64,000 nucleotides of DNA from Deltaproteobacteria bacterium (GTDB lineage Bacteria > Myxococcota > Myxococcia > Myxococcales > 40CM-4-68-19), in NCBI GenBank assembly GCA_005879315.1, contig VBLC01000036.1, positions 22,002 through 86,001 on the forward strand, in the 5' to 3' direction. The position numbers and the translations under genes are program-made. Of this stretch, positions 10,579-19,565 are shown piece by piece; position 1 is the first letter of the stretch, and the number at the start of each line of letters is the position of its first letter. Under the pieces are notes generated by a model. It was not told the origin of the DNA. It saw only the letters and a program-made list of their open reading frames with translations, and ran no database searches.

Positions 10579-11613
10579 ATGCGCTCTAGTCTCTCGCGCG
10601 TGGCTCTCCTCTACCGCCTGCTCCGGCCGCTCTTCTTCTTGCTCGACGCGGAGCTGGCTCACTCGCTGGTGGCCGCCTTTCTCTGGCTCTGGGCGCGGGT
10701 CTGGCCGCGGCCGCGGCGTCGGGCGCTGCTGGCGCAGAAATTGTGGGGCCTCGACTTCCCCACGCCGGTCGGGCTGGCCGCGGGCATGGACAAAGGGCAG
10801 ATCCTCGCGCCCGCCTGGTTCCGGCTCGGCTTCGGCTTCGTCGAGATCGGCACCATCACGCCGCGGCCGCAGCCGGGAAACCCCAAGCCGCGCCTCTTCC
10901 GGCTGCGCGAGCAGGGCGCGCTCGTCAACCGGATGGGCTTCAACAACGACGGCGCCGAGAGGACCGCCGCCCGCCTGCGCCGCCTGCCTCGGCAGCCCGG
11001 CCCGATCCTGATCAACATCGGCCGCAACAAGGAGACGCCGAACGAGCGCGCCGCCGACGACTACCTGACTGCCTTTCGCGCCCTCGCGCCGCTCGCCGAC
11101 GGCGTGGTCATCAACGTCTCGAGCCCGAACACTCCCGGACTCCGCGACTTGCAGGCCGACATCGGCTCCTTGGTCAAGGCCATCGTCGCGGCGCGGACGG
11201 GGCAGATGCCGGTCCTGGTCAAGCTCTCCCCGGACGAGGACCGGCCGGAAGAGATCGCCGAAGCAGCCGTCGCCGCCGGCGCCGACGGCATCGTCGCCAC
11301 CAACACGACGATCGATCCTGCAGGACGAGAGACGGGCGGACTCTCCGGCGCGCCGCTCAAGGAGAAGGCATTGCGAGCCTGCGCGCGCATCTACCGCCAG
11401 GTGGGCAGGCGCGTTCCCATCATCGGCGTGGGCGGCATCGCCAGCGCGGAGGATGCCTACGCGCGCATCCGCGCAGGCGCCTCGCTCGTCGAGATCTACA
11501 CGGCGCTCGTCTACCAGGGTCCGCGCGCCGCGCGCGACATCTCAGAGGGCCTCGCGCGCCTGCTCGCGCGCGACGGCCTGTCGCTCGGCGAAGCGGTCGG
11601 CCGCGACGCCTGA
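10579..11613 (+). CDS. pyrD: quinone-dependent dihydroorotate dehydrogenase (class 2)
   Basis: PVGLAAGMDK, GFGFVEIGTITPRPQPGNPKPRLFRL, NRMGFNNDG, INIGRNK, INVSSPNTPGLR, GGLSG, IIGVGGI, IYTALVYQGP. Confidence 0.97.
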   Translation: MRSSLSRVALLYRLLRPLFFLLDAELAHSLVAAFLWLWARVWPRPRRRALLAQKLWGLDFPTPVGLAAGMDKGQILAPAWFRLGFGFVEIGTITPRPQPGNPKPRLFRLREQGALVNRMGFNNDGAERTAARLRRLPRQPGPILINIGRNKETPNERAADDYLTAFRALAPLADGVVINVSSPNTPGLRDLQADIGSLVKAIVAARTGQMPVLVKLSPDEDRPEEIAEAAVAAGADGIVATNTTIDPAGRETGGLSGAPLKEKALRACARIYRQVGRRVPIIGVGGIASAEDAYARIRAGASLVEIYTALVYQGPRAARDISEGLARLLARDGLSLGEAVGRDA

Positions 11614-12504
11614 GAGCGAACCGAAGAGGATCCGCGCCGCCGCCATCACCGCGAGGGCAATGCCCAGCCCGATGAAGATGTCGATCAGGTAGTGATGATT
11701 GAGATAGACGGCGGCGAAGCAGATGAGCAGGAAATAGGCGATCGCCACCAGGCGGAACCTGCGCAGATGCCAGCCATAGACCATGGCGAGGAACGGATAG
11801 ACCACGTGCAGGCTGGGGATCGCGCCGAACACGTCCGCGCTCTTGCCGTAGAAGCCGCGCATGATGGGCAGGCCGACGAGCGTATCGAAGCGGAGAGCTC
11901 CGGCGGCGGAAGCGCGCACGCTCATGTCCACCGCGAAGCCGTGGTCGGTCACGTACCAGGGCGGGGCGGCCGGATAGATGTAGTAGCAGCTGAAGCCGAT
12001 GAAGTTGGCGATGACGAAGATCCAGGTGAAGCGCACGCCGCGCCGCTCCTCGCCGGTGAGCAAGAAATAGATGCTGAGGACGATGCATTCGCCGATGAAG
12101 AAGAGGGGCGTGTAGGCGAGCCCGCAGATGAAATCGAGCGCCGCGCTGGTGTGCTGCTGGAACCATTCGTTCGGGGTCTGGCCGTGGATGCCGAAGAAGC
12201 GCAGGTCGAAGTCGTACGGCTCGCGCACGTGGATGATGGGCGAGCGGATGTAGTCCTCGTACCAGCGCATCGAGTCGTAGACGAGGCCGTAGAGCAGATA
12301 GGGAAGACCGATCCTGGCGATGCGGCGGCTGCTCTCGCTCCACAGAGAGAGCGCGAGCGCGAGGGCGACCAGGAGGAGATGCTCCGGCCCCAGCCCGCCC
12401 AGCGCGAGAAGGACCGCGAGATAGACGGTGCCGAAGATCGGCACCCAGACGGTGAAGAACTTCGGCGCGGCGCGGATCTGTTCCGGATGGGGCCGCAGAT
12501 CCAT
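11542..12504 (-). CDS. Aur1/inositol-phosphorylceramide-synthase-like PAP2 membrane phosphotransferase
   Basis: C-terminal part of track ORF 11542..14925. Multi-TM protein with YPAAPPWY, FGAIPSLH and VYLNHHYLID, matching the conserved Aur1/Ipt1 (PAP2_3) motifs including the His/His/Asp triad. Start overlaps the MMPL stop. Confidence 0.88.
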   Translation of the reverse strand: MDLRPHPEQIRAAPKFFTVWVPIFGTVYLAVLLALGGLGPEHLLLVALALALSLWSESSRRIARIGLPYLLYGLVYDSMRWYEDYIRSPIIHVREPYDFDLRFFGIHGQTPNEWFQQHTSAALDFICGLAYTPLFFIGECIVLSIYFLLTGEERRGVRFTWIFVIANFIGFSCYYIYPAAPPWYVTDHGFAVDMSVRASAAGALRFDTLVGLPIMRGFYGKSADVFGAIPSLHVVYPFLAMVYGWHLRRFRLVAIAYFLLICFAAVYLNHHYLIDIFIGLGIALAVMAAARILFGSLSGVAADRFAERQAVAREQAREAL

Positions 12505-14957
12505 CACGCCTCCTGCAGCACCGCCGCGCGCCGCTGCCGCAGGGAGAGGACCGCCGGAAGGGCGAAGAGCGCCGCCGAGAGGCAGGTCACTTCGCCCACC
12601 ACGGCGGTGAGCCCGAAGCTCTGGATGGCCTGGTTGTCGGCGGTCACCAGCGTAGCGTAGCCGATGATGGTGCTGAGCGAGCAGAGCGCCACCGCGCCGC
12701 CGGAGGAGGCCAGCGCCTCTTCCACGGTGCCGGCCTGTCGATAACGTTGGTAGAGATTGACAGCGTAATCGACGCCGATTCCAAAGGTGATCGGCAAGAC
12801 TGCAAAATTGACGAAATTCAGCTTGAGCGAGAGCAGCGTCATCGCTCCTGCCATCCAGAGGACGCCGAGCGTGAGCGAACCCACCACCCAGCCGGTGTCG
12901 CGCCAGCTGCGCATGATGAGAAAGGTGAGCAAGGCGACCGCGAGAAAGCTCAGCGAGGCGGTGAGCGCGCCATCGTTGGTGATGGCCGCGACGATCTCGG
13001 TGGTGAGGACGATCTGCCCGGCGATGCGCGCCGCCGGGTCGGCTTTCAGCGCCGCCTCGCGAACCGCGCGCGTATGGGCCATCTGCGCCTTGCCGTTGGA
13101 CGCGTCGGTCGCGAGCGTCGGATAGACGAGCACGATGCGCCCGCGCTGGCCGTCCTTCTCGACGAAAGCCCGGGTGAGCCGGTCGGGAACGTCCGCGAAC
13201 TGGACCGGCTCGAGCCGGGTCTTCTCGCGCAGCCGCCGCACCTCGGGCGAGAGCTCGCTGCGCGGCCGCTTGTCGAGAAGCGAGAAGATCTCGCGCAACA
13301 GCTCGAGCTTCTGCGGCTGCTTCGGGGGAAGGAACGACTGCAGTGTGAGAACCGAGTCGATGGTGCCCGAAGGCCCCTCCTGGTCCTTCTCCTTCTCCAT
13401 CGCCGTCGCCACCGCCTGCGCGCTCGAGGTCGAGTCGGTGAGCACCACGGTCGGCGTCTGGTAGGACTGCAAGACCGCATCGACATGCTTGTCCCAGAAT
13501 GCCGCGCCCTGGGTGAGCCCGGACCGGCTGCCCAGCTTGCGGAAGTCGTACTGGATGGGGTCCTCGGCGAACTTCACCGCGGCATAGACGGAGCCGAGCG
13601 CGAGCACGGCCGTGAGGACGACCGGCAGCGCCGGCTTCTTCAGCAACAGCTGCCCGTAAGGCCCCGCCACCCAGCCCACCGCGCGCCCGTTGCGCCGCGA
13701 AAGATTGCGGAAGGGCCAGTAACGTTCCTGCAGGACGATGAGCGGCGGCATGAGCGCATAGGTGGCGGTCCAGCAGAAGAGCATGCCGAAGAAGCCCATG
13801 AAGGCGAATTGATTGAAGCCGCGGAAGCTGACCACGCCGAGCGATCCGTAGCTCGCCGCAGCCGCGGAGCTGGCCGCGAACGTCGCCACCCAGGTGGTGC
13901 GCAGCGCGACCGGCAGCGCCTTGTCCGCTGCGCTGCCATTGCGCCGCTCCTCGATGTATCGGGCGAAAAGGATGATGCCGGCATTGATGCCGTTGCCGAC
14001 GATGATGCTGCCGAGAAAAGCCGTATTTGGATTCAGATAGTGAATGACGCCACGGGAGAGAGCGAAGGTGAGCGAGACGCCGGTGAAGAGTGGCAGGACG
14101 AGGAGCGGCACCGCCCGCAGCGTGCGGTAGTACGCGACCAGCGCCAGGCCCACCAGCAGGAGCACCAGCGCGCTCGACACCAGCAGATCCCTCACCAGTG
14201 CCTGCTGCGCCTCGATGACGCCTTTCACCTCGCCGCCGTAACCGATGCGGATGCTGGGATGGAAGCTCTTTGGGTCGAGCCCGCGCACGGCGGTGTCGAC
14301 GGCCTCGAAGATGCGCTCGTCTTCGGTCAGGCCCACGGCTGCTCCGGGCGGAGAGATGAGCATCACCAGCGTGTGTCCGCCCTCGCCCGCGAGATAGCCG
14401 TCGGGAAAGCGATCGACGCGCGAATAGGCAGACTTGATCCGGCCCACCATCTCCTCGAACGTCGGCCCTGGCGCGGTCTCCGCCTCGTCGGCGATCTCGA
14501 CCAGCAGCGGATTTGCCTGGGCCAGCCGCGCGCGCAGCGCATCGCGCGCCATCTGCAGATCGCGGAGGTCGGCGTAGAGCGCGCCGTGGCGGTCGAGGAA
14601 CTCCCTCTCCGCGTCGACCCGCCAGTGCACGCGAGCGACCAGCGAAGGGGGCAGCGCCTTCAGCCGCTTGGCCACCGCATCGACGAAACGCTCGCCGGCC
14701 TTCAAGTCGTCCGTCCGCACGACCAGCGCCAGGCTGGAGAGCCCGCCGATGCGTTTCTCCAGCTCTTCCAGGCCGACCGCTGCCGGGGCGCCGTGAGGCA
14801 AGAGCTCGCGCAAGTCGGTGCGCAGATCGCCGTAGAGGCGCGCGGCGAAGGGAAGGCAGACGGCAAAGACAGCGATGCCGAAGAACGCGATCTCCCACGG
14901 CCGCCGCAGCGAGAGCGCGGCCCACCAGGTCCAGAAGCGGGCGAGACGCGATTCCAC
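12504..14957 (-). CDS. MMPL/RND family lipid transporter
   Basis: 817 aa with two repeats of TM + periplasmic loop + TM bundle. Repeat 2 has GIGVDYAVNL and repeat 1 has GNGINAGIIL. Confidence 0.9.
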   Translation of the reverse strand: MESRLARFWTWWAALSLRRPWEIAFFGIAVFAVCLPFAARLYGDLRTDLRELLPHGAPAAVGLEELEKRIGGLSSLALVVRTDDLKAGERFVDAVAKRLKALPPSLVARVHWRVDAEREFLDRHGALYADLRDLQMARDALRARLAQANPLLVEIADEAETAPGPTFEEMVGRIKSAYSRVDRFPDGYLAGEGGHTLVMLISPPGAAVGLTEDERIFEAVDTAVRGLDPKSFHPSIRIGYGGEVKGVIEAQQALVRDLLVSSALVLLLVGLALVAYYRTLRAVPLLVLPLFTGVSLTFALSRGVIHYLNPNTAFLGSIIVGNGINAGIILFARYIEERRNGSAADKALPVALRTTWVATFAASSAAAASYGSLGVVSFRGFNQFAFMGFFGMLFCWTATYALMPPLIVLQERYWPFRNLSRRNGRAVGWVAGPYGQLLLKKPALPVVLTAVLALGSVYAAVKFAEDPIQYDFRKLGSRSGLTQGAAFWDKHVDAVLQSYQTPTVVLTDSTSSAQAVATAMEKEKDQEGPSGTIDSVLTLQSFLPPKQPQKLELLREIFSLLDKRPRSELSPEVRRLREKTRLEPVQFADVPDRLTRAFVEKDGQRGRIVLVYPTLATDASNGKAQMAHTRAVREAALKADPAARIAGQIVLTTEIVAAITNDGALTASLSFLAVALLTFLIMRSWRDTGWVVGSLTLGVLWMAGAMTLLSLKLNFVNFAVLPITFGIGVDYAVNLYQRYRQAGTVEEALASSGGAVALCSLSTIIGYATLVTADNQAIQSFGLTAVVGEVTCLSAALFALPAVLSLRQRRAAVLQEA

Positions 14958-14966
14958 GCCGCTTCC

Positions 14967-16304
14967 CTAGCGGGCCCCGTGGCGGCGCGCCACCACCTCG
15001 ACGGCCTCGCGCAACAGGGCAAGGCCGGCCAGCGCCGTCTCCTGGTCGATGGTCAGAGCCGGCTGCAGGCGGATGGCGTGCGTGTAGCTCATTGCCAGAA
15101 GCCCGCGGCGCAGTCCCTCCTGGAAGATCTCCTGGCAGATCTTCTTCGGCAGGGGCTCCTTGGTGTTGCGATCGGCGACCAGCTCGACGCCGAGCAACAG
15201 TCCCTCGCCGCGCACGTCGCCCACCCAGCGGAGCCGGTCGGGCCAGCTGCGCAATTCCAGGAGCATCGCGGCTCCCACCTCGCGCACGTTTTCCAGGACA
15301 TGCTCTTTTTGCAAAGTCTCGATCGAAGCCAGCGCTGCCGCCGCCGCGAGCGGATTGCCGCCGTAGGACGAAGACGAGCCGCTCTGGTTGCTCCAGGGCT
15401 TGGCCTGCGCCACCTCCGCTTTCGCCACCAGGCCGCTGATGGGAAATCCCGAGCCGAACCCCTTGCCGATGGTGATGACGTCGGCCGTTACTCCGCTGCG
15501 CTCGCTGGCGAACCAGCGGCCGGTGCGGCCGAAGCCGGTGATCATCTCGTCGGCGATGAAGACCGCGCCGTGCTCGCGCGCCATCTCCTGCGCCCGCTGC
15601 ATGAACTCGGGAGGCGGCACGACGTTGCCGGCGGTGCCCTGGATCGGCTCGATGATCACTGCGGCCAAAGAGCCGGTGGTCGCCTGGTTGAGCTGTTCGC
15701 GCGCCAGATCCGCGCAGGCGACGCCGCAGCTGGGATACTTGAGCTTCAAAGGGCAGCGATAGCAGTTGGCGTACGGCAACAGGTGGCCGGGCGGCAGCGG
15801 CCCGTAGGTGCGCGCATTTCCCGAGCCGTTGACCGCGAGCGTCCCGGCGGTCTTGCCGTGGAAAGCGCCCCAGAAGCCGGCGACTTCGTGCTTGCCGGTG
15901 TAGTTCTTGGCGAGGCGGAAGGCGCTCTCCACCGCCTCGGCCCCGCTCGAATAGAGCTGCACCTTGTCGACGCCCGAAGGCGTCAGCTTGGCCACTTCAT
16001 TGATCAGCTGCGCGCGCGGCGCGCTGGTGAAAGAGCCGACCGTCGCCTTGTCGATCTGCTCGTGCAGCGCCTTGCGATAGGCGGGATGGCAGTGCCCGAG
16101 CGCGTTGACGCCGATGCCGCCGATCAGGTCGACATAGCGGTTGCCGTCGACGTCCTCGATGACGCTGCCCTCTGCGCGTTCGACCGCGATGCCGCTCGAG
16201 AGCGCGAATCCTTGCAGGCCCGGAGCCAGGTGCTGCTGCTCGAAGCGCACCAGCTCTCGCGACTTCGGGCCGGGGATCTCCGTCTGGATGTGCGGTGCCT
16301 TCAC
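14967..16304 (-). CDS. class III PLP-dependent aminotransferase-family enzyme
   Basis: C-terminal part of track ORF 14967..18569 from GTG 16304: DVDGNRYVDLIGGIGVNALGH, SSGAEAVE, FHGKT, IEPIQGTAG, FIADEMITGFGRTG, IGKGFGSG (PLP Lys), VRGEGLLLGVEL. Confidence 0.93.
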   Translation of the reverse strand: MKAPHIQTEIPGPKSRELVRFEQQHLAPGLQGFALSSGIAVERAEGSVIEDVDGNRYVDLIGGIGVNALGHCHPAYRKALHEQIDKATVGSFTSAPRAQLINEVAKLTPSGVDKVQLYSSGAEAVESAFRLAKNYTGKHEVAGFWGAFHGKTAGTLAVNGSGNARTYGPLPPGHLLPYANCYRCPLKLKYPSCGVACADLAREQLNQATTGSLAAVIIEPIQGTAGNVVPPPEFMQRAQEMAREHGAVFIADEMITGFGRTGRWFASERSGVTADVITIGKGFGSGFPISGLVAKAEVAQAKPWSNQSGSSSSYGGNPLAAAAALASIETLQKEHVLENVREVGAAMLLELRSWPDRLRWVGDVRGEGLLLGVELVADRNTKEPLPKKICQEIFQEGLRRGLLAMSYTHAIRLQPALTIDQETALAGLALLREAVEVVARRHGAR

Positions 16305-16390
16305 CGAAACCTCGTTGAAGAGTTCGATTCCCGAGCTGCGTTCCCGTCGCGCGGGCACGTTTAGCACGAAGAAGGGTCGAACTTCTCGAC

Positions 16391-18712
16391 TCAAAAGATG
16401 GGCGGGCTCGGCGGCTTGTTGGCGTAGGAAAATTCCGAGAGCGCCTGCCCGCTGCGCTGCTCGGAGGTGTCGCCTGGGCGATCGATGCGGAGCTGGTAGC
16501 GGTTCTCGTAGGTGTACGCCATCGGCGCCGCGACGGTGCTGACGAGAAGGCGCGAGAGCGGCCCCATCTCCTCGAGCAGATCCTGCCGGTAGAGCAGCTT
16601 GCGGGCTTCGATGCGCACCGTCACGGTCTCGCCCAGCGCGCCGCGCGCCACCGCCTTCACCCGCTGGGGCACGTCGTACTCGAAATGTCCGCCGGCCTCG
16701 TGGCGCGGGGACTCGAAGGAGAGCTTCACTTCGCTCGAGCGCACCTCGGTGCGGCCGCCCTTGCTGGTGTAGAGCCATCCCTGCGGCGGCAGGCGCGATT
16801 CCTCCGGCGGAAAGAGCACCGCCAAGGCAGCGGTGGCGCCGCTCTGATCGTCGAAGGCCTCCATCCGGTACCAGAGCGAGGCGCTCTTGTAGGCGGGCAC
16901 GGTGGAGTAGCTGGTGTCGGCGTAGCAGTAGCCGCGCATCTTGCGGCTGCCCGTGGCGGCGCTCCAGAGCGTGCCGTCGAAGCGGCTGCGCAAGGCGAAG
17001 ATGGTCTGATCGAAGACCGCGCGGCCGCTGGCGTCGAAGACCACCCGGCCGCCGCCGGGCCGCACCGGCTTGGTCTCGGGCAACACCGTCGCGTCGACCA
17101 CGAGCTTGCGCCCGGCAAAGTGCACGTGGTGGCTGGCATCGGGGCCCATGGTGAGGCGTGAGGCGCCCATCTCGATGGCGCCTTCCGGCTGGACGCCCCA
17201 TTCGCCGCTCTCGAAGGCCTGACTGTCCTCGATGGTCTTGCCGTCGGCCGCGACCACCACCGCGCGCACGGCTGCTTTGCCGTGCCCCTCGAGGCCGGCA
17301 TTGCTGACGAGGAACTGCACGCGGGCGAAGGCGCCGTCCTCCGAGCTGAAGAGGAACGAATAGCTCTCCGAATAGAACGCCTCCGGCCGCAGCTTGGGGA
17401 GGAAGCTGGTCTGGGTGATCTCGGCGCTGTCGGGCAGGGCGCTGGAGAAGCCGTGCACCTGCTCTTCTGCGAAGGGATTTCCATAGGCCGAGACGAGCAC
17501 GGCCCACGCCGCCAGCGCCGAGGCGAACGCCCCGAGGATGGCGAGGGCGGGCCGCGGCTTTCCGCTCTGCTCGCGGAAGACGAAGATGCGATGCAGCGGC
17601 AGGTTCCATCCCAGCGACACCGCCACTCCCACGACCGCCGCGGCGATCAGCGGATTCCAGCGCAGGCCTTCGGTGAGGAGGATGACGCCGACGGTGTTGA
17701 GGAGCAGCGAGGTGAGCGAGATGGCGGCGTAGCGGGGCGCCTCGATGAACAGCGAATTCTGCCGCGTCTTGAAGGTGTAGATCTTGTTGAGGGTGAAATT
17801 GGTGACGGCGCCGAGCAGCGCTCCGAGCGCGCGCGAGGTGCCGGTGTAGATGCCGATCACCTCGACCATGATGGTGAACGAGCCGTAGTCGACGACGGTG
17901 GCGACGGCGGAGGCCACCCAGGCGCGCTGGAACCAGCCAGAGAGCACTTCCTCGCGCTCCGCGGGCCGCGGCGCGCCCTCGCGCTTGCGCAGCTCGCCGT
18001 GGATATAGGTGAACCGGCGGATGGCGGTGACGTTGGCCATCACCGCGACCAGCGCGAGCGTGCCCAGAAGCAGGTGATAGGTCGGCCGCGCCACGCCCGG
18101 CTCGAGAAAGCGCGCGGTGATCGGGGCGAGCACGCCGGCGATGCCGATGTAGACGGCCCGCTCGGCGCGGTTCATCGAGCCCATGCGCGCGTCGATTCCG
18201 CTGATCTCTCCTTTGGCGCGAGCATAGGAGACGAGCAATGCTCCACCGAGGGAAGTCAATGCAAGCCAGAAACCGAGCGGATAGTTTCGATAATAAGCGG
18301 CGAGACCGGCGAAAGTGGCGATCTCGGCGTAGCGATCGACGGCGGCGTCGATCAGCTCGCCCGCGTCGGAAGCGGTGCCGCGCGAGCGCGCCACCATCCC
18401 GTCGAGCGCGTCGAGCACCGCGCAGGCGATGACCAGCCAGCCGCCCAGCGCCGGGCTGCCCGTCGCGAACGCGGCGCCTGCGCCGATGCTGCAGGCGAGG
18501 GAGGCCGCGGTGATCTGGTTGGGCGTGAGGCCCAGGCGCAGCGCCGCCTTCTCCAGCGGCGCGAAGCACCAGTAGCCGAACTCGATGAAGAAGCGCCCGA
18601 GGAAGACGCTGCCCGGCTCTTTCCGGATCCGCTCGGTGACGTACCGGCCCTTCACCAGCACTCTCGCCGAGTAGGCGGCAAGGAGCGTGAGCACCGACGC
18701 GATCGCGACCAA
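16391..18712 (-). CDS. fusion: CDP-alcohol phosphatidyltransferase + GtrA-like flippase + TM helix + Svf1/AttH-like lipocalin-fold domain
   Basis: Signature DALDGMVARSRGTASDAGELIDAAVD (DxxDGxxAR...GxxxDxxxD). GtrA-like 4-TM block ATVVDY...NFTLNKIYTF...NLPLHRIFVF, then a hydrophobic helix and a beta-rich ~350 aa domain. The start may be CTG 18721, 7 nt after GGAGG. Confidence 0.85.
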   Translation of the reverse strand: MVAIASVLTLLAAYSARVLVKGRYVTERIRKEPGSVFLGRFFIEFGYWCFAPLEKAALRLGLTPNQITAASLACSIGAGAAFATGSPALGGWLVIACAVLDALDGMVARSRGTASDAGELIDAAVDRYAEIATFAGLAAYYRNYPLGFWLALTSLGGALLVSYARAKGEISGIDARMGSMNRAERAVYIGIAGVLAPITARFLEPGVARPTYHLLLGTLALVAVMANVTAIRRFTYIHGELRKREGAPRPAEREEVLSGWFQRAWVASAVATVVDYGSFTIMVEVIGIYTGTSRALGALLGAVTNFTLNKIYTFKTRQNSLFIEAPRYAAISLTSLLLNTVGVILLTEGLRWNPLIAAAVVGVAVSLGWNLPLHRIFVFREQSGKPRPALAILGAFASALAAWAVLVSAYGNPFAEEQVHGFSSALPDSAEITQTSFLPKLRPEAFYSESYSFLFSSEDGAFARVQFLVSNAGLEGHGKAAVRAVVVAADGKTIEDSQAFESGEWGVQPEGAIEMGASRLTMGPDASHHVHFAGRKLVVDATVLPETKPVRPGGGRVVFDASGRAVFDQTIFALRSRFDGTLWSAATGSRKMRGYCYADTSYSTVPAYKSASLWYRMEAFDDQSGATAALAVLFPPEESRLPPQGWLYTSKGGRTEVRSSEVKLSFESPRHEAGGHFEYDVPQRVKAVARGALGETVTVRIEARKLLYRQDLLEEMGPLSRLLVSTVAAPMAYTYENRYQLRIDRPGDTSEQRSGQALSEFSYANKPPSPPIF

Positions 18713-18781
18713 AAGGGGCAGCTTCGAACCTCCGTTTGCGCTCGACCTACGTGGGCATACTTCTGCTCACATTCGAGCGTC

Positions 18782-18810
18782 CAAATACCTAAAAACAATC
18801 AATGTTGCAA
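18782..18810 (-). promoter_or_regulatory. putative sigma70 promoter of the lipid cluster, in an AT-rich patch
   Basis: The minus strand reads TTGCAA-17 nt (cattgattgtttttagg)-TATTTG, and a GGAGG Shine-Dalgarno precedes the CDS. Confidence 0.55.
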
Positions 18811-18812
18811 TC

Positions 18813-19565
18813 CTATGGCGGCAATACCACGAGGACCATGGGCAGGCCTACTCCGGGGGTGGCCACATCGCTCGTTTCGGTCTTGACGGCGAGCGACGCC
18901 TCTGGACCGCCGTCGAGATTCAGCGCCTCGACGGCGCCCAGCCCCTCGGCCAGCCACTTGCCGACCTCCCGCCGCACCGCCGGCCATTGCGAGGCGAAGA
19001 GCACGATGCGCCCATCCTTGAGCTGCGCAAGAGCCGCGGTGCGGGAAGACTCCGCGCAGTAATGCGCCCCCGCACAGGCCGCGGCCCCCTCGCGCACCAG
19101 CGCCGGGAAGCTCTTGAGCGCTTCCTGCCACTGCTCTGGACGGAAGTTGGCCGGCGTCAGCAGCCGTGCCTGCGAGGAGGGCAGCGACGCCGGCACCGCC
19201 TGCCGCGGCTTGGCGCCGAAGAAGAGCGCGTCCTGCCGATGGCATCCGGCGCCGCGCACCGGCTTTCCCTCGAGGACCAGGTCGCAGGTGGGCCGGACCG
19301 GTGCCGCCGCGGGTCCGTCGAGCGAATAGAAGGAGCCGTTGACGATGGCGAGGGCGCGAGGGAACTTCTGCCGCCACTCCGGGAGCGTCGGCCGCGACGG
19401 ATCGTAACGGACCAGGAAAGTCGCGCGCGCCGGATCGACGAGCACCACCCGCGCCGCCCAGCCTGGGTTGCCGCCCAGATCAGCGGCGGCGGCCGTCTCG
19501 ACCCCAGGCGCGACCTGCTTGAGCGGCGAGGGGGCGAGCGCGGCGATGAGCAGCAGCGCGAGCAT
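18813..19565 (-). CDS. secreted phosphodiester glycosidase family protein (NAGPA/DUF2233-like)
   Basis: Signal peptide MLALLLIAALA; VNGSFY, SRTAALAQLKDGRIVL, ALNLDGGPEASL (LDGG motif). The start abuts the ppk1 stop (TAGATG). Confidence 0.75.
   Translation of the reverse strand: MLALLLIAALAPSPLKQVAPGVETAAAADLGGNPGWAARVVLVDPARATFLVRYDPSRPTLPEWRQKFPRALAIVNGSFYSLDGPAAAPVRPTCDLVLEGKPVRGAGCHRQDALFFGAKPRQAVPASLPSSQARLLTPANFRPEQWQEALKSFPALVREGAAACAGAHYCAESSRTAALAQLKDGRIVLFASQWPAVRREVGKWLAEGLGAVEALNLDGGPEASLAVKTETSDVATPGVGLPMVLVVLPP

Follow-up and report, generated by a model that had tools for sequence, protein, structure and literature searches.

A four-gene operon of uncultured Myxococcales for the probable synthesis and export of an undescribed amino-inositol membrane lipid

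Bacterial inositol lipids and sphingolipids have been characterized genetically only recently and only in Bacteroides. In Bacteroides thetaiotaomicron, the genes BT_1522 to BT_1526 bring together a phosphatidylinositol phosphate (PIP)-diacylglycerol synthase, a GtrA protein, and a phosphoinositol-dihydroceramide synthase of the PAP2_3 family, and the headgroup depends on MIPS (myo-inositol-phosphate synthase) (PMC9246714). We analyzed an operon that likewise holds homologs of the first three of these together. It lies in a stretch of 64,000 nucleotides (nt) from contig VBLC01000036.1 of an uncultured myxobacterium from soil (Myxococcales; assembly GCA_005879315.1, positions 22,002 to 86,001 of the forward strand); this whole stretch is called the window, and its positions are used below. 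The source genome comprises 125 contigs that total 4.43 Mb, with a completeness of 97.6%. The four genes, A to D, encode a fusion protein that begins with a PIP synthase (PIPS)-like domain, a class III pyridoxal phosphate (PLP) aminotransferase (AT3), an MMPL exporter, and a PAP2_3 enzyme. On balance, the operon appears to form the core of a bacterial inositol-lipid pathway of a variant type, and the probable outcome is the synthesis and export of an amino-inositol membrane lipid that has not been described.

Gene calls were made from GC3 (GC content at third codon positions) frame analysis and lists of open reading frames (ORFs). In the window, which is approximately 70% GC, the GC3 frame plot singled out four consecutive minus-strand genes among many spurious long ORFs: gene A (16391-18712, 773 amino acids [aa]), gene B (14967-16304, with a GTG start behind GAGG and an alternative upstream GTG at 16367), gene C (12504-14957, 817 aa), and gene D (11542-12504, 320 aa). 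Their spacing is operon-like: A and B are 86 nt apart (23 nt with the alternative B start), 9 nt separate B from C, and the gene C stop overlaps the gene D start as GTGATGG behind AGGAGG. Frames, ORFs, and spacing agree with a first-pass annotation of this DNA, made by a model from the sequence alone, which had described four tightly packed, co-oriented genes here.

Residues 1 to 255 of gene A (17948-18712) were identified as a PIPS-like cytidine diphosphate (CDP)-alcohol phosphatidyltransferase by Pfam, by NCBIfam, and by alignment to PIPS structures in the PDB. The CDP-OH_P_transf domain matched with an E value of 5e-12, and the signature motif DALDGMVAR-x8-GELIDAAVD contains the complete CDP-alcohol signature D..DG..AR..G...D...D. 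The best NCBIfam models were archaetidylinositol-phosphate synthase, PIP synthase, and the Bacteroides BT1523 PIP synthase, all matched below cut-off; the scores against PIPS models NF045883, NF040950, and NF052561 were 117 bits versus 180, 97.3 versus 170, and 96.9 versus 350, respectively. Gene D encodes an Aur1- or phosphoinositol-dihydroceramide-synthase-like headgroup phosphotransferase of the PAP2_3 family (PF14378, E value of 1e-24, 87.7 bits versus a 27-bit cut-off), and its only NCBIfam match was phosphoinositol dihydroceramide synthase (NF052609, 190.9 bits versus a cut-off of 480). Its catalytic residues are His233, His270/271, and Asp275, and the PSLH and NHHYxxD motifs are invariant among its homologs. 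The first-pass annotation had related both enzymes to the Bacteroides inositol-lipid genes and had called the catalytic motifs of the Aur1 homolog intact, and these matches bear it out on both counts. A test for group-specific residues in the PAP2_3 enzymes returned one column and was uninformative. Gene B encodes a GabT-like class III PLP aminotransferase (Aminotran_3, PF00202, E value of 4e-97) of a distinct subfamily; it fell below every NCBIfam equivalog cut-off (best score, 355.7 versus 552), and the closest relatives with solved structures are of the GabT type.

Relatives of the operon were collected by scanning GTDB genomes with a gene D alignment, and the 41 loci obtained were annotated by tblastn with the window proteins. 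Among them, approximately 25 metagenome-assembled genomes (MAGs) of uncultured Myxococcales keep the complete order ppk1-NAGPA-A-B-C-D/pyrD, which supports the earlier view of A to D as one conserved functional unit. Other Myxococcota families have the order PIPS-(GtrA)-AT3-GFO-MMPL, GFO being a Gfo/Idh/MocA dehydrogenase, with MIPS and PAP2_3 genes adjacent or within 8 kb. Complete genomes of 4.6 Mb and 6 Mb are present in two of these families (f2 and f3), which suggests that cultured carriers exist. The Oligoflexia have GFO directly upstream of MIPS-PIPS-GtrA-AT3 and MMPL-MFS-PAP2_3 alongside, and the commonest Bdellovibrionota order has GFO-PIPS-AT3 as direct neighbors with PAP2_3 next door. 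The neighborhood comparison that the first-pass annotation had suggested therefore showed that the set of PAP2_3, PIPS, GtrA, MMPL, and AT3 genes recurs in Myxococcota and Bdellovibrionota together with MIPS and one specific GFO. As the homologous clusters of Myxococcales and Oligoflexia show, both AT3 and the MMPL exporter are conserved across phyla as parts of a cluster linked to inositol.

As had been noted from the sequence, no gene for MIPS, a phosphatase, or a serine palmitoyltransferase (SPT) was found within the four-gene cluster. The non-inositol system that had been proposed on this ground is not borne out. The source genome carries one MIPS gene, on contig C40 and unlinked to the operon, and MIPS lies inside the homologous clusters of other families and of Bdellovibrionota. 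At C40:64436-71785 (L002), the MIPS gene is followed by an OEP (TolC-like) gene, with an MlaC gene 5 kb further on. Relatives carry MlaC and OEP genes within their clusters, in other families beside PIPS-AT3-GFO-MMPL. Because MIPS, OEP, and MlaC genes are found together on C40, and OEP and MlaC genes are in the cluster in relatives, C40 seems to carry the detached second half of the system.

The dehydrogenase of the Oligoflexia clusters has a 56%-identical ortholog in the source genome (C40:11319-12368), also unlinked to the operon. Among 201 Myxococcota genomes, gene B orthologs were detected in 16 and GFO orthologs in 14, and 14 of 14 GFO-positive genomes were also gene B positive; the two genomes with gene B but without GFO were one that is 65% complete and one that has the most distant B homolog. 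MIPS was present in all 14 genomes with both genes. Of 151 Bdellovibrionota genomes, 21 had gene B orthologs, 22 had GFO, and 21 had both. The Fisher p values for the association of AT3 with GFO, uncorrected for phylogeny, were 9e-20 in Myxococcota and 8e-25 in Bdellovibrionota. The two genes are usually adjacent and often flank the PIPS gene; in the window's family, GFO is on a separate contig yet is retained in 4/4 genomes. MIPS, a PF01408 dehydrogenase, and an aminotransferase are all present, and the three are co-inherited. The first-pass annotation, to which GFO was invisible because it is on another contig in this family, had assigned synthesis of the headgroup to the PLP enzyme alone, and the co-occurrence of AT3 with GFO in two phyla does not bear this out. 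Its broader claim of an amino-modified headgroup would still be the best reading of an aminotransferase that is conserved in the pathway and co-inherited with a GFO partner.

Two features of the proteins themselves point in the same direction. Gene A has Glu119, immediately after the second Gly of the signature, at the position where canonical PIPS have Ala. This Glu was found in 17/17 cluster-associated PIPS and in 0/29 nonassociated PIPS; the residue is Ala in six plain PIPS, Ala or Gly in twenty others not beside AT3 or GFO, and Ala in the three solved PIPS (Mycobacterium tuberculosis 6H53, Mycobacterium kansasii 6WM5, and Renibacterium 5D91). The twenty include three Bdellovibrionota PIPS that are as similar as some associated ones and the second PIPS copies of four AT3-positive genomes. 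An acidic residue gained in the catalytic motif, in step with the amination module, would be what an ammonium-bearing acceptor calls for. The second feature is in gene B, whose subfamily has the invariant motifs FHGKT, QGTAGN, DEMITG, SSSYGGNP, and IRLQPAL in both phyla, the first four of which are missing from the other class III paralogs of the source genome. In GabT and ornithine aminotransferase, the Arg of FHGRT binds the substrate carboxylate and a C-terminal Arg binds the alpha-carboxylate of glutamate or 2-oxoglutarate. All gene B orthologs have FHGKT, with Lys in place of the Arg of the GabT/ArgD motif FHGRT, and keep the Arg of IRLQPAL. If these residue roles apply, the Lys swap and the kept C-terminal Arg would therefore mean a glutamate-dependent enzyme with a noncarboxylate second substrate. 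Gene B has no transmembrane helix, and its product is therefore expected to be cytoplasmic.

Aminocyclitols are formed from myo-inositol in the scyllo-inosamine routes of streptomycin and rhizopine. In a further case, Hyg18 (MIPS), Hyg17 (a PF01408 dehydrogenase), and Hyg8 (an aminotransferase) of hygromycin A biosynthesis turn myo-inositol into an aminocyclitol (PMC10949010). GabT1, a relative of ValM from the validamycin aminocyclitol pathway, converts the keto group of a sugar phosphate into an amine (PMC8382821). Because PF01408 dehydrogenases paired with aminotransferases swap a hydroxyl for an amine, as Hyg17 and Hyg8 do, we propose the following route. MIPS on C40 would, by homology, make inositol-1-phosphate. 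GFO would then oxidize one ring hydroxyl and gene B would aminate the resulting ketone with glutamate, yielding inosamine or its phosphate, a step suggested by co-inheritance and precedent; alternatively, GFO and gene B may act on the lipid-bound headgroup. The Glu-type PIPS domain of gene A would couple the headgroup to CDP-diacylglycerol, again by homology. A phosphatase would strip the extra phosphate (a PgpA homolog exists on contig C50), and gene D would take the phospho-headgroup off the glycerolipid and place it on a ceramide-like acceptor at the outer face of the inner membrane. The lipocalin domain of gene A, described below, and the MMPL protein of gene C would pass lipid on in the direction of the outer membrane, a transfer in which MlaC and OEP, encoded beside MIPS, probably take part. 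The net effect would be the replacement of an anionic inositol headgroup by a zwitterionic one. We regard this sequence of events, in which inositol or its phosphate is oxidized and transaminated, attached to diacylglycerol, passed to a ceramide-like acceptor, and exported, with slightly better than even confidence.

Several points weigh against this proposal. The product was deduced entirely from genomic context. The sampled genomes share ancestry, which inflates the p values and makes the co-occurrences look more independent than they are. GFO was assigned to no specific subfamily, its best NCBIfam matches (levoglucosan, UDP-GlcNAc-3, and inositol-2 dehydrogenases) being all far below cut-off, and the pair might instead use the lipid moiety, or a different polyol, as its substrate. 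Known inosose aminotransferases are mostly of the DegT type, not class III. The operon has no PIP phosphatase, and the PgpA homolog of the source genome, a single one, is at C50:188041-188454. Finally, a ceramide acceptor is not established in the source genome, because it has no clear stand-alone SPT. The first-pass annotation had suggested a search for spt in this genome, and when all PF00155 matches were compared with NCBIfam, no clear stand-alone enzyme was found; the only SPT-like sequences were a KBL/BioF-like gene and the C-terminal 8-amino-7-oxononanoate synthase (AONS) domain of a 2291-aa polyketide synthase (PKS) on contig C62.

Four other explanations were weighed against the amino-inositol lipid. 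The operon could be an ordinary inositol-lipid operon, in which plain phosphatidylinositol (PI) and inositol-phosphoceramide (IPC) come from A and D with the help of the unlinked MIPS, as in Bacteroides and Myxococcus, and the aminotransferase merely travels along, serving unrelated amine metabolism of the GABA or ornithine type, regulation, or salvage. The matches of A and D to PIP synthase and phosphoinositol-dihydroceramide synthase models, the presence of MIPS, the GabT enzymes as closest solved relatives of gene B, and the ordinary ceramide phosphoinositol that Myxococcus xanthus is reported to make (PMC9246714) all fit such an operon. We nevertheless consider it unlikely, since gene B orthologs are confined to cluster-bearing genomes and co-occur with one GFO in two phyla, the PIPS gene is often sandwiched by GFO and AT3, and gene B has subfamily-specific active-site motifs and scores under every equivalog cut-off. 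In addition, the associated PIPS all have Glu and plain PIPS, including same-genome paralogs, do not, and plain clusters do exist: Myxococcus-size genomes carry MIPS-PAP2_3-PIPS-GtrA with neither AT3 nor GFO. The first-pass annotation had itself named ordinary PI or IPC made with an unlinked ino1 as the outcome that would speak against it; ino1 is indeed unlinked, but an ordinary product is disfavored by the AT3-GFO pair and by the change in the synthase motif. Also improbable, in our judgment, is amination of the backbone, in which the GFO-AT3 pair would act on a keto group carried by a sphingoid-base or ceramide intermediate, or by a long-chain alcohol of polyketide origin, and leave the inositol headgroup unmodified. 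Class III enzymes do act on long-chain amines and aldehydes, the cluster of one family (f3) continues into SPT-like and GNAT-like genes, and the source genome has a PKS-AONS locus of the long-chain-base type. Against this, Gfo/Idh/MocA enzymes typically act on soluble sugars and cyclitols, neither B nor GFO has membrane segments, the correlated change sits in the headgroup-attaching enzyme, and the pair is linked most tightly to PIPS and MIPS rather than to SPT, as in the Bdellovibrionota order GFO-PIPS-AT3.

The first-pass annotation's own version, in which the PLP enzyme alone makes a non-inositol amino-alcohol phosphate of the serinol-phosphate type that A attaches and D moves, drew on a local cluster without MIPS, and it could also appeal to gene A scores under the PIPS cut-offs and to the dihydroxyacetone phosphate-type aminotransferases among class III enzymes. 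It now seems very unlikely, because MIPS is inside homologous clusters elsewhere and accompanies AT3 and GFO in 14 of 14 genomes, the enzyme has an obligatory partner in a dehydrogenase of the sugar or cyclitol type, and the best models of gene A are all inositol-phosphate transferases. We give least credence of all to hopanoid chemistry, in which B would be an HpnO-like enzyme that aminates the bacteriohopanepolyol side chain, C an HpnN-type exporter, and the phosphotransferases would decorate hopanoids. HpnO is a class III aminotransferase, the best NCBIfam model of gene C is HpnN, and a squalene-hopene cyclase gene lies beside SQS_PSY and PAP2_3 paralog genes on contig C116. Gene C, however, scores 214 bits against an HpnN cut-off of 752, the window operon is not beside hopanoid genes, and the cyclase is absent or insignificant in 5/14 Myxococcota and 9/11 Bdellovibrionota cluster carriers (14/25), including two genomes of the window's family. 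This distribution led us to reject an HpnO/HpnN function as the general role of the cluster.

Several loci bear on the supply and modification of the lipid. The PKS on contig C62 (C62:1-12514, L060) has the domains KS-AT-ACP-KR-DH followed by the AONS/SPT-like domain, and its neighbors encode a fatty-acyl-AMP ligase, a CMAS-type methyltransferase, an ACP, and an HpnA/OleD-like reductase. This gene content resembles a polyketide route that ends in a long-chain amino alcohol of sphingoid type, a possible source of the acceptor lipid. The connection to sphingolipids is an indirect one. In family f3, the cluster extends into an AONS gene, for which serine palmitoyltransferase is the best NCBIfam model (466 bits versus a cut-off of 640), and then into a GNAT-like gene, which has a 40% homolog on contig C107 of the source genome. 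A calcineurin-like metallophosphoesterase gene follows the MMPL gene in one family (L069, 14022-15197) and has a 35% homolog on source contig C92; this enzyme is a candidate headgroup phosphatase. Downstream of AT3 in two Oligoflexia loci (L036, 5042-8104; L032, 2866-5768) are genes for an unknown 268-aa protein, an LPG_synthase_TM protein (MprF flippase-like), and a FemAB/GNAT aminoacyl-transferase-like protein, which suggests extra aminoacylation of the headgroup in that lineage. A second PAP2_3 paralog of the source genome (C116:1216-5385, L044), scoring 172 bits against the phosphoinositol-dihydroceramide synthase model, adjoins an Omp85-like gene and the squalene/phytoene synthase and squalene-hopene cyclase genes mentioned above, an arrangement in which a link between phospho-headgroup transfer and hopanoids is possible.

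The remainder of gene A and all of gene C concern the membrane and export. Residues 268 to 379 of gene A (17576-17911) form a GtrA-family four-helix membrane domain (PF04138, E value of 3.5e-18, and hydropathy). The flipping of the headgroup that the first-pass annotation had assigned to GtrA is not supported: a GtrA knockout in Bacteroides had no lipid phenotype (PMC9246714), and many Bdellovibrionota clusters have no space for a GtrA gene between PIPS and AT3. An extra transmembrane helix follows at residues 389 to 407 (17492-17548, hydropathy peak of 2.27); by the parity of the predicted helices, it would set the C-terminal domain across the membrane, in the periplasm. This domain, of approximately 365 residues (408 to 773; 16391-17491), gave a weak Pfam match to Svf1_C (E value of 8e-4, 19.7 bits versus a 25-bit cut-off) and no match in a sequence search against the PDB, and a fold search was therefore required. 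An AlphaFold2 (AF2) model of the domain (pLDDT, 74.7; pTM, 0.77) matched AttH (2ICH) in Foldseek with an E value of 5.5e-12 and TM scores of 0.61/0.71, and further matches, with E values down to 3e-12, were the fungal Diels-Alderases Fsa2 and Phm7, kievitone hydratase, and 25-phosphosteroid lyase. At the level of the predicted fold, the domain was confirmed as a double-lipocalin beta-barrel of the AttH/CrtC/Svf1 type, a fold that binds hydrophobic ligands. With the Pfam matches, these models uphold the CDP-alcohol phosphotransferase-GtrA-lipocalin-like fusion that had been read from the sequence, and fusions of the same type occur in other families (L039 and L066). Gene C is an HpnN-like MMPL/HAE3 transporter of the resistance-nodulation-division (RND) superfamily with two large periplasmic loops (MMPL E value of 3e-29; HpnN model, 214 bits versus a cut-off of 751.85), and its homologs come after AT3-GFO in other Myxococcota families. 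The export role that had been given to the MMPL protein and the lipid-binding domain would fit the MlaC and OEP genes in the clusters of relatives.

The operon is preceded by an AT-rich spacer of 100 nt (18713-18812, 5' of gene A on the minus strand) that is 49% GC in a genome of approximately 70% GC, and relatives have a spacer of 140 to 300 nt at the matching position. A scan of this spacer found no sigma-70 consensus. The AT-rich promoter claimed in the first-pass annotation is thus plausible as regards base composition but is a candidate only. On the same strand upstream are a NAGPA-family gene and ppk1, and a convergent pyrD gene lies downstream. The NAGPA-family "phosphodiester glycosidase" gene (18813-19565, minus strand; PF09992, E value of 1.4e-12) is directly upstream of the operon and abuts ppk1, and its position is kept across all close Myxococcales relatives and not in other families. 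The presence of a phosphodiester-cleaving enzyme of the NAGPA type beside a phosphodiester-lipid operon may be more than coincidence.

A search of the literature yielded the Bacteroides work (PMC9246714) and no description of inosamine or amino-inositol phospholipids or of this gene combination, and there is a substantial chance that the product belongs to an undescribed lipid class. More broadly, and with confidence just short of even, we suggest that Myxococcota and Bdellovibrionota of soil and freshwater make phosphoglycerolipids and phosphosphingolipids with an amino-inositol (inosamine) headgroup by means of a MIPS-GFO-AT3 module, a Glu-bearing PIPS, and a dedicated RND/lipocalin-domain/MlaC/OEP export system. 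The locus appears to be a second, more elaborate version of the Bacteroides pathway, widespread in uncultured soil predators. The chemical prediction is the exchange of a hydroxyl for an amine on the inositol ring, making the headgroup 0.984 Da lighter and converting it from anionic to zwitterionic, and such a headgroup would change the charge of the outer membrane, as lysyl-phosphatidylglycerol or aminoarabinose does elsewhere. Glu versus Ala in the CDP-alcohol transferase motif would serve as a single-residue marker for mining such pathways, and the export genes are a candidate dedicated route taking sphingolipid-type lipids to the outer membrane.

The proposed system resembles several known ones and differs from each. 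It shares with the hygromycin A aminocyclitol module the use of MIPS, GFO, and an aminotransferase to turn a hydroxyl into an amine on a cyclitol. The known aminocyclitol pathways make soluble antibiotics or signals, mostly with DegT-type aminotransferases, whereas the module described here has a GabT-like class III enzyme and is tied to a CDP-alcohol phosphatidyltransferase and a lipid exporter. The product of a module wired to a lipid synthase and an exporter would therefore be a membrane lipid. Gene C has the twelve-helix MMPL architecture and two periplasmic loops of the HpnN/MmpL (HAE3 RND) exporters but is far under the equivalog cut-off and travels with inositol-lipid genes, also in genomes without squalene-hopene cyclase. 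Gene D belongs to the PAP2_3 fold family of fungal Aur1/IPC synthase and has its H/H/D catalytic residues. Yeast Svf1 is reportedly a ceramide-binding lipocalin, and the C-terminal domain of gene A, which has the AttH/Svf1-type double-lipocalin fold, would be a bacterial, membrane-anchored relative. Its similarity to Svf1 in sequence is remote, however, with Svf1_C below cut-off, and it is fused to a synthase; in contrast to the Svf1 and Aur1 systems, the host is a bacterium and RND-mediated export is proposed. Compared to BT_1522 to BT_1526, the window operon is without MIPS and without a PgpA-type PIP phosphatase, has PIPS, GtrA, and the AttH/Svf1-fold domain fused in one protein, adds a class III aminotransferase with its obligatory GFO partner and an MMPL exporter, and has Glu for Ala in the PIPS motif, with all NCBIfam scores below the equivalog cut-offs.

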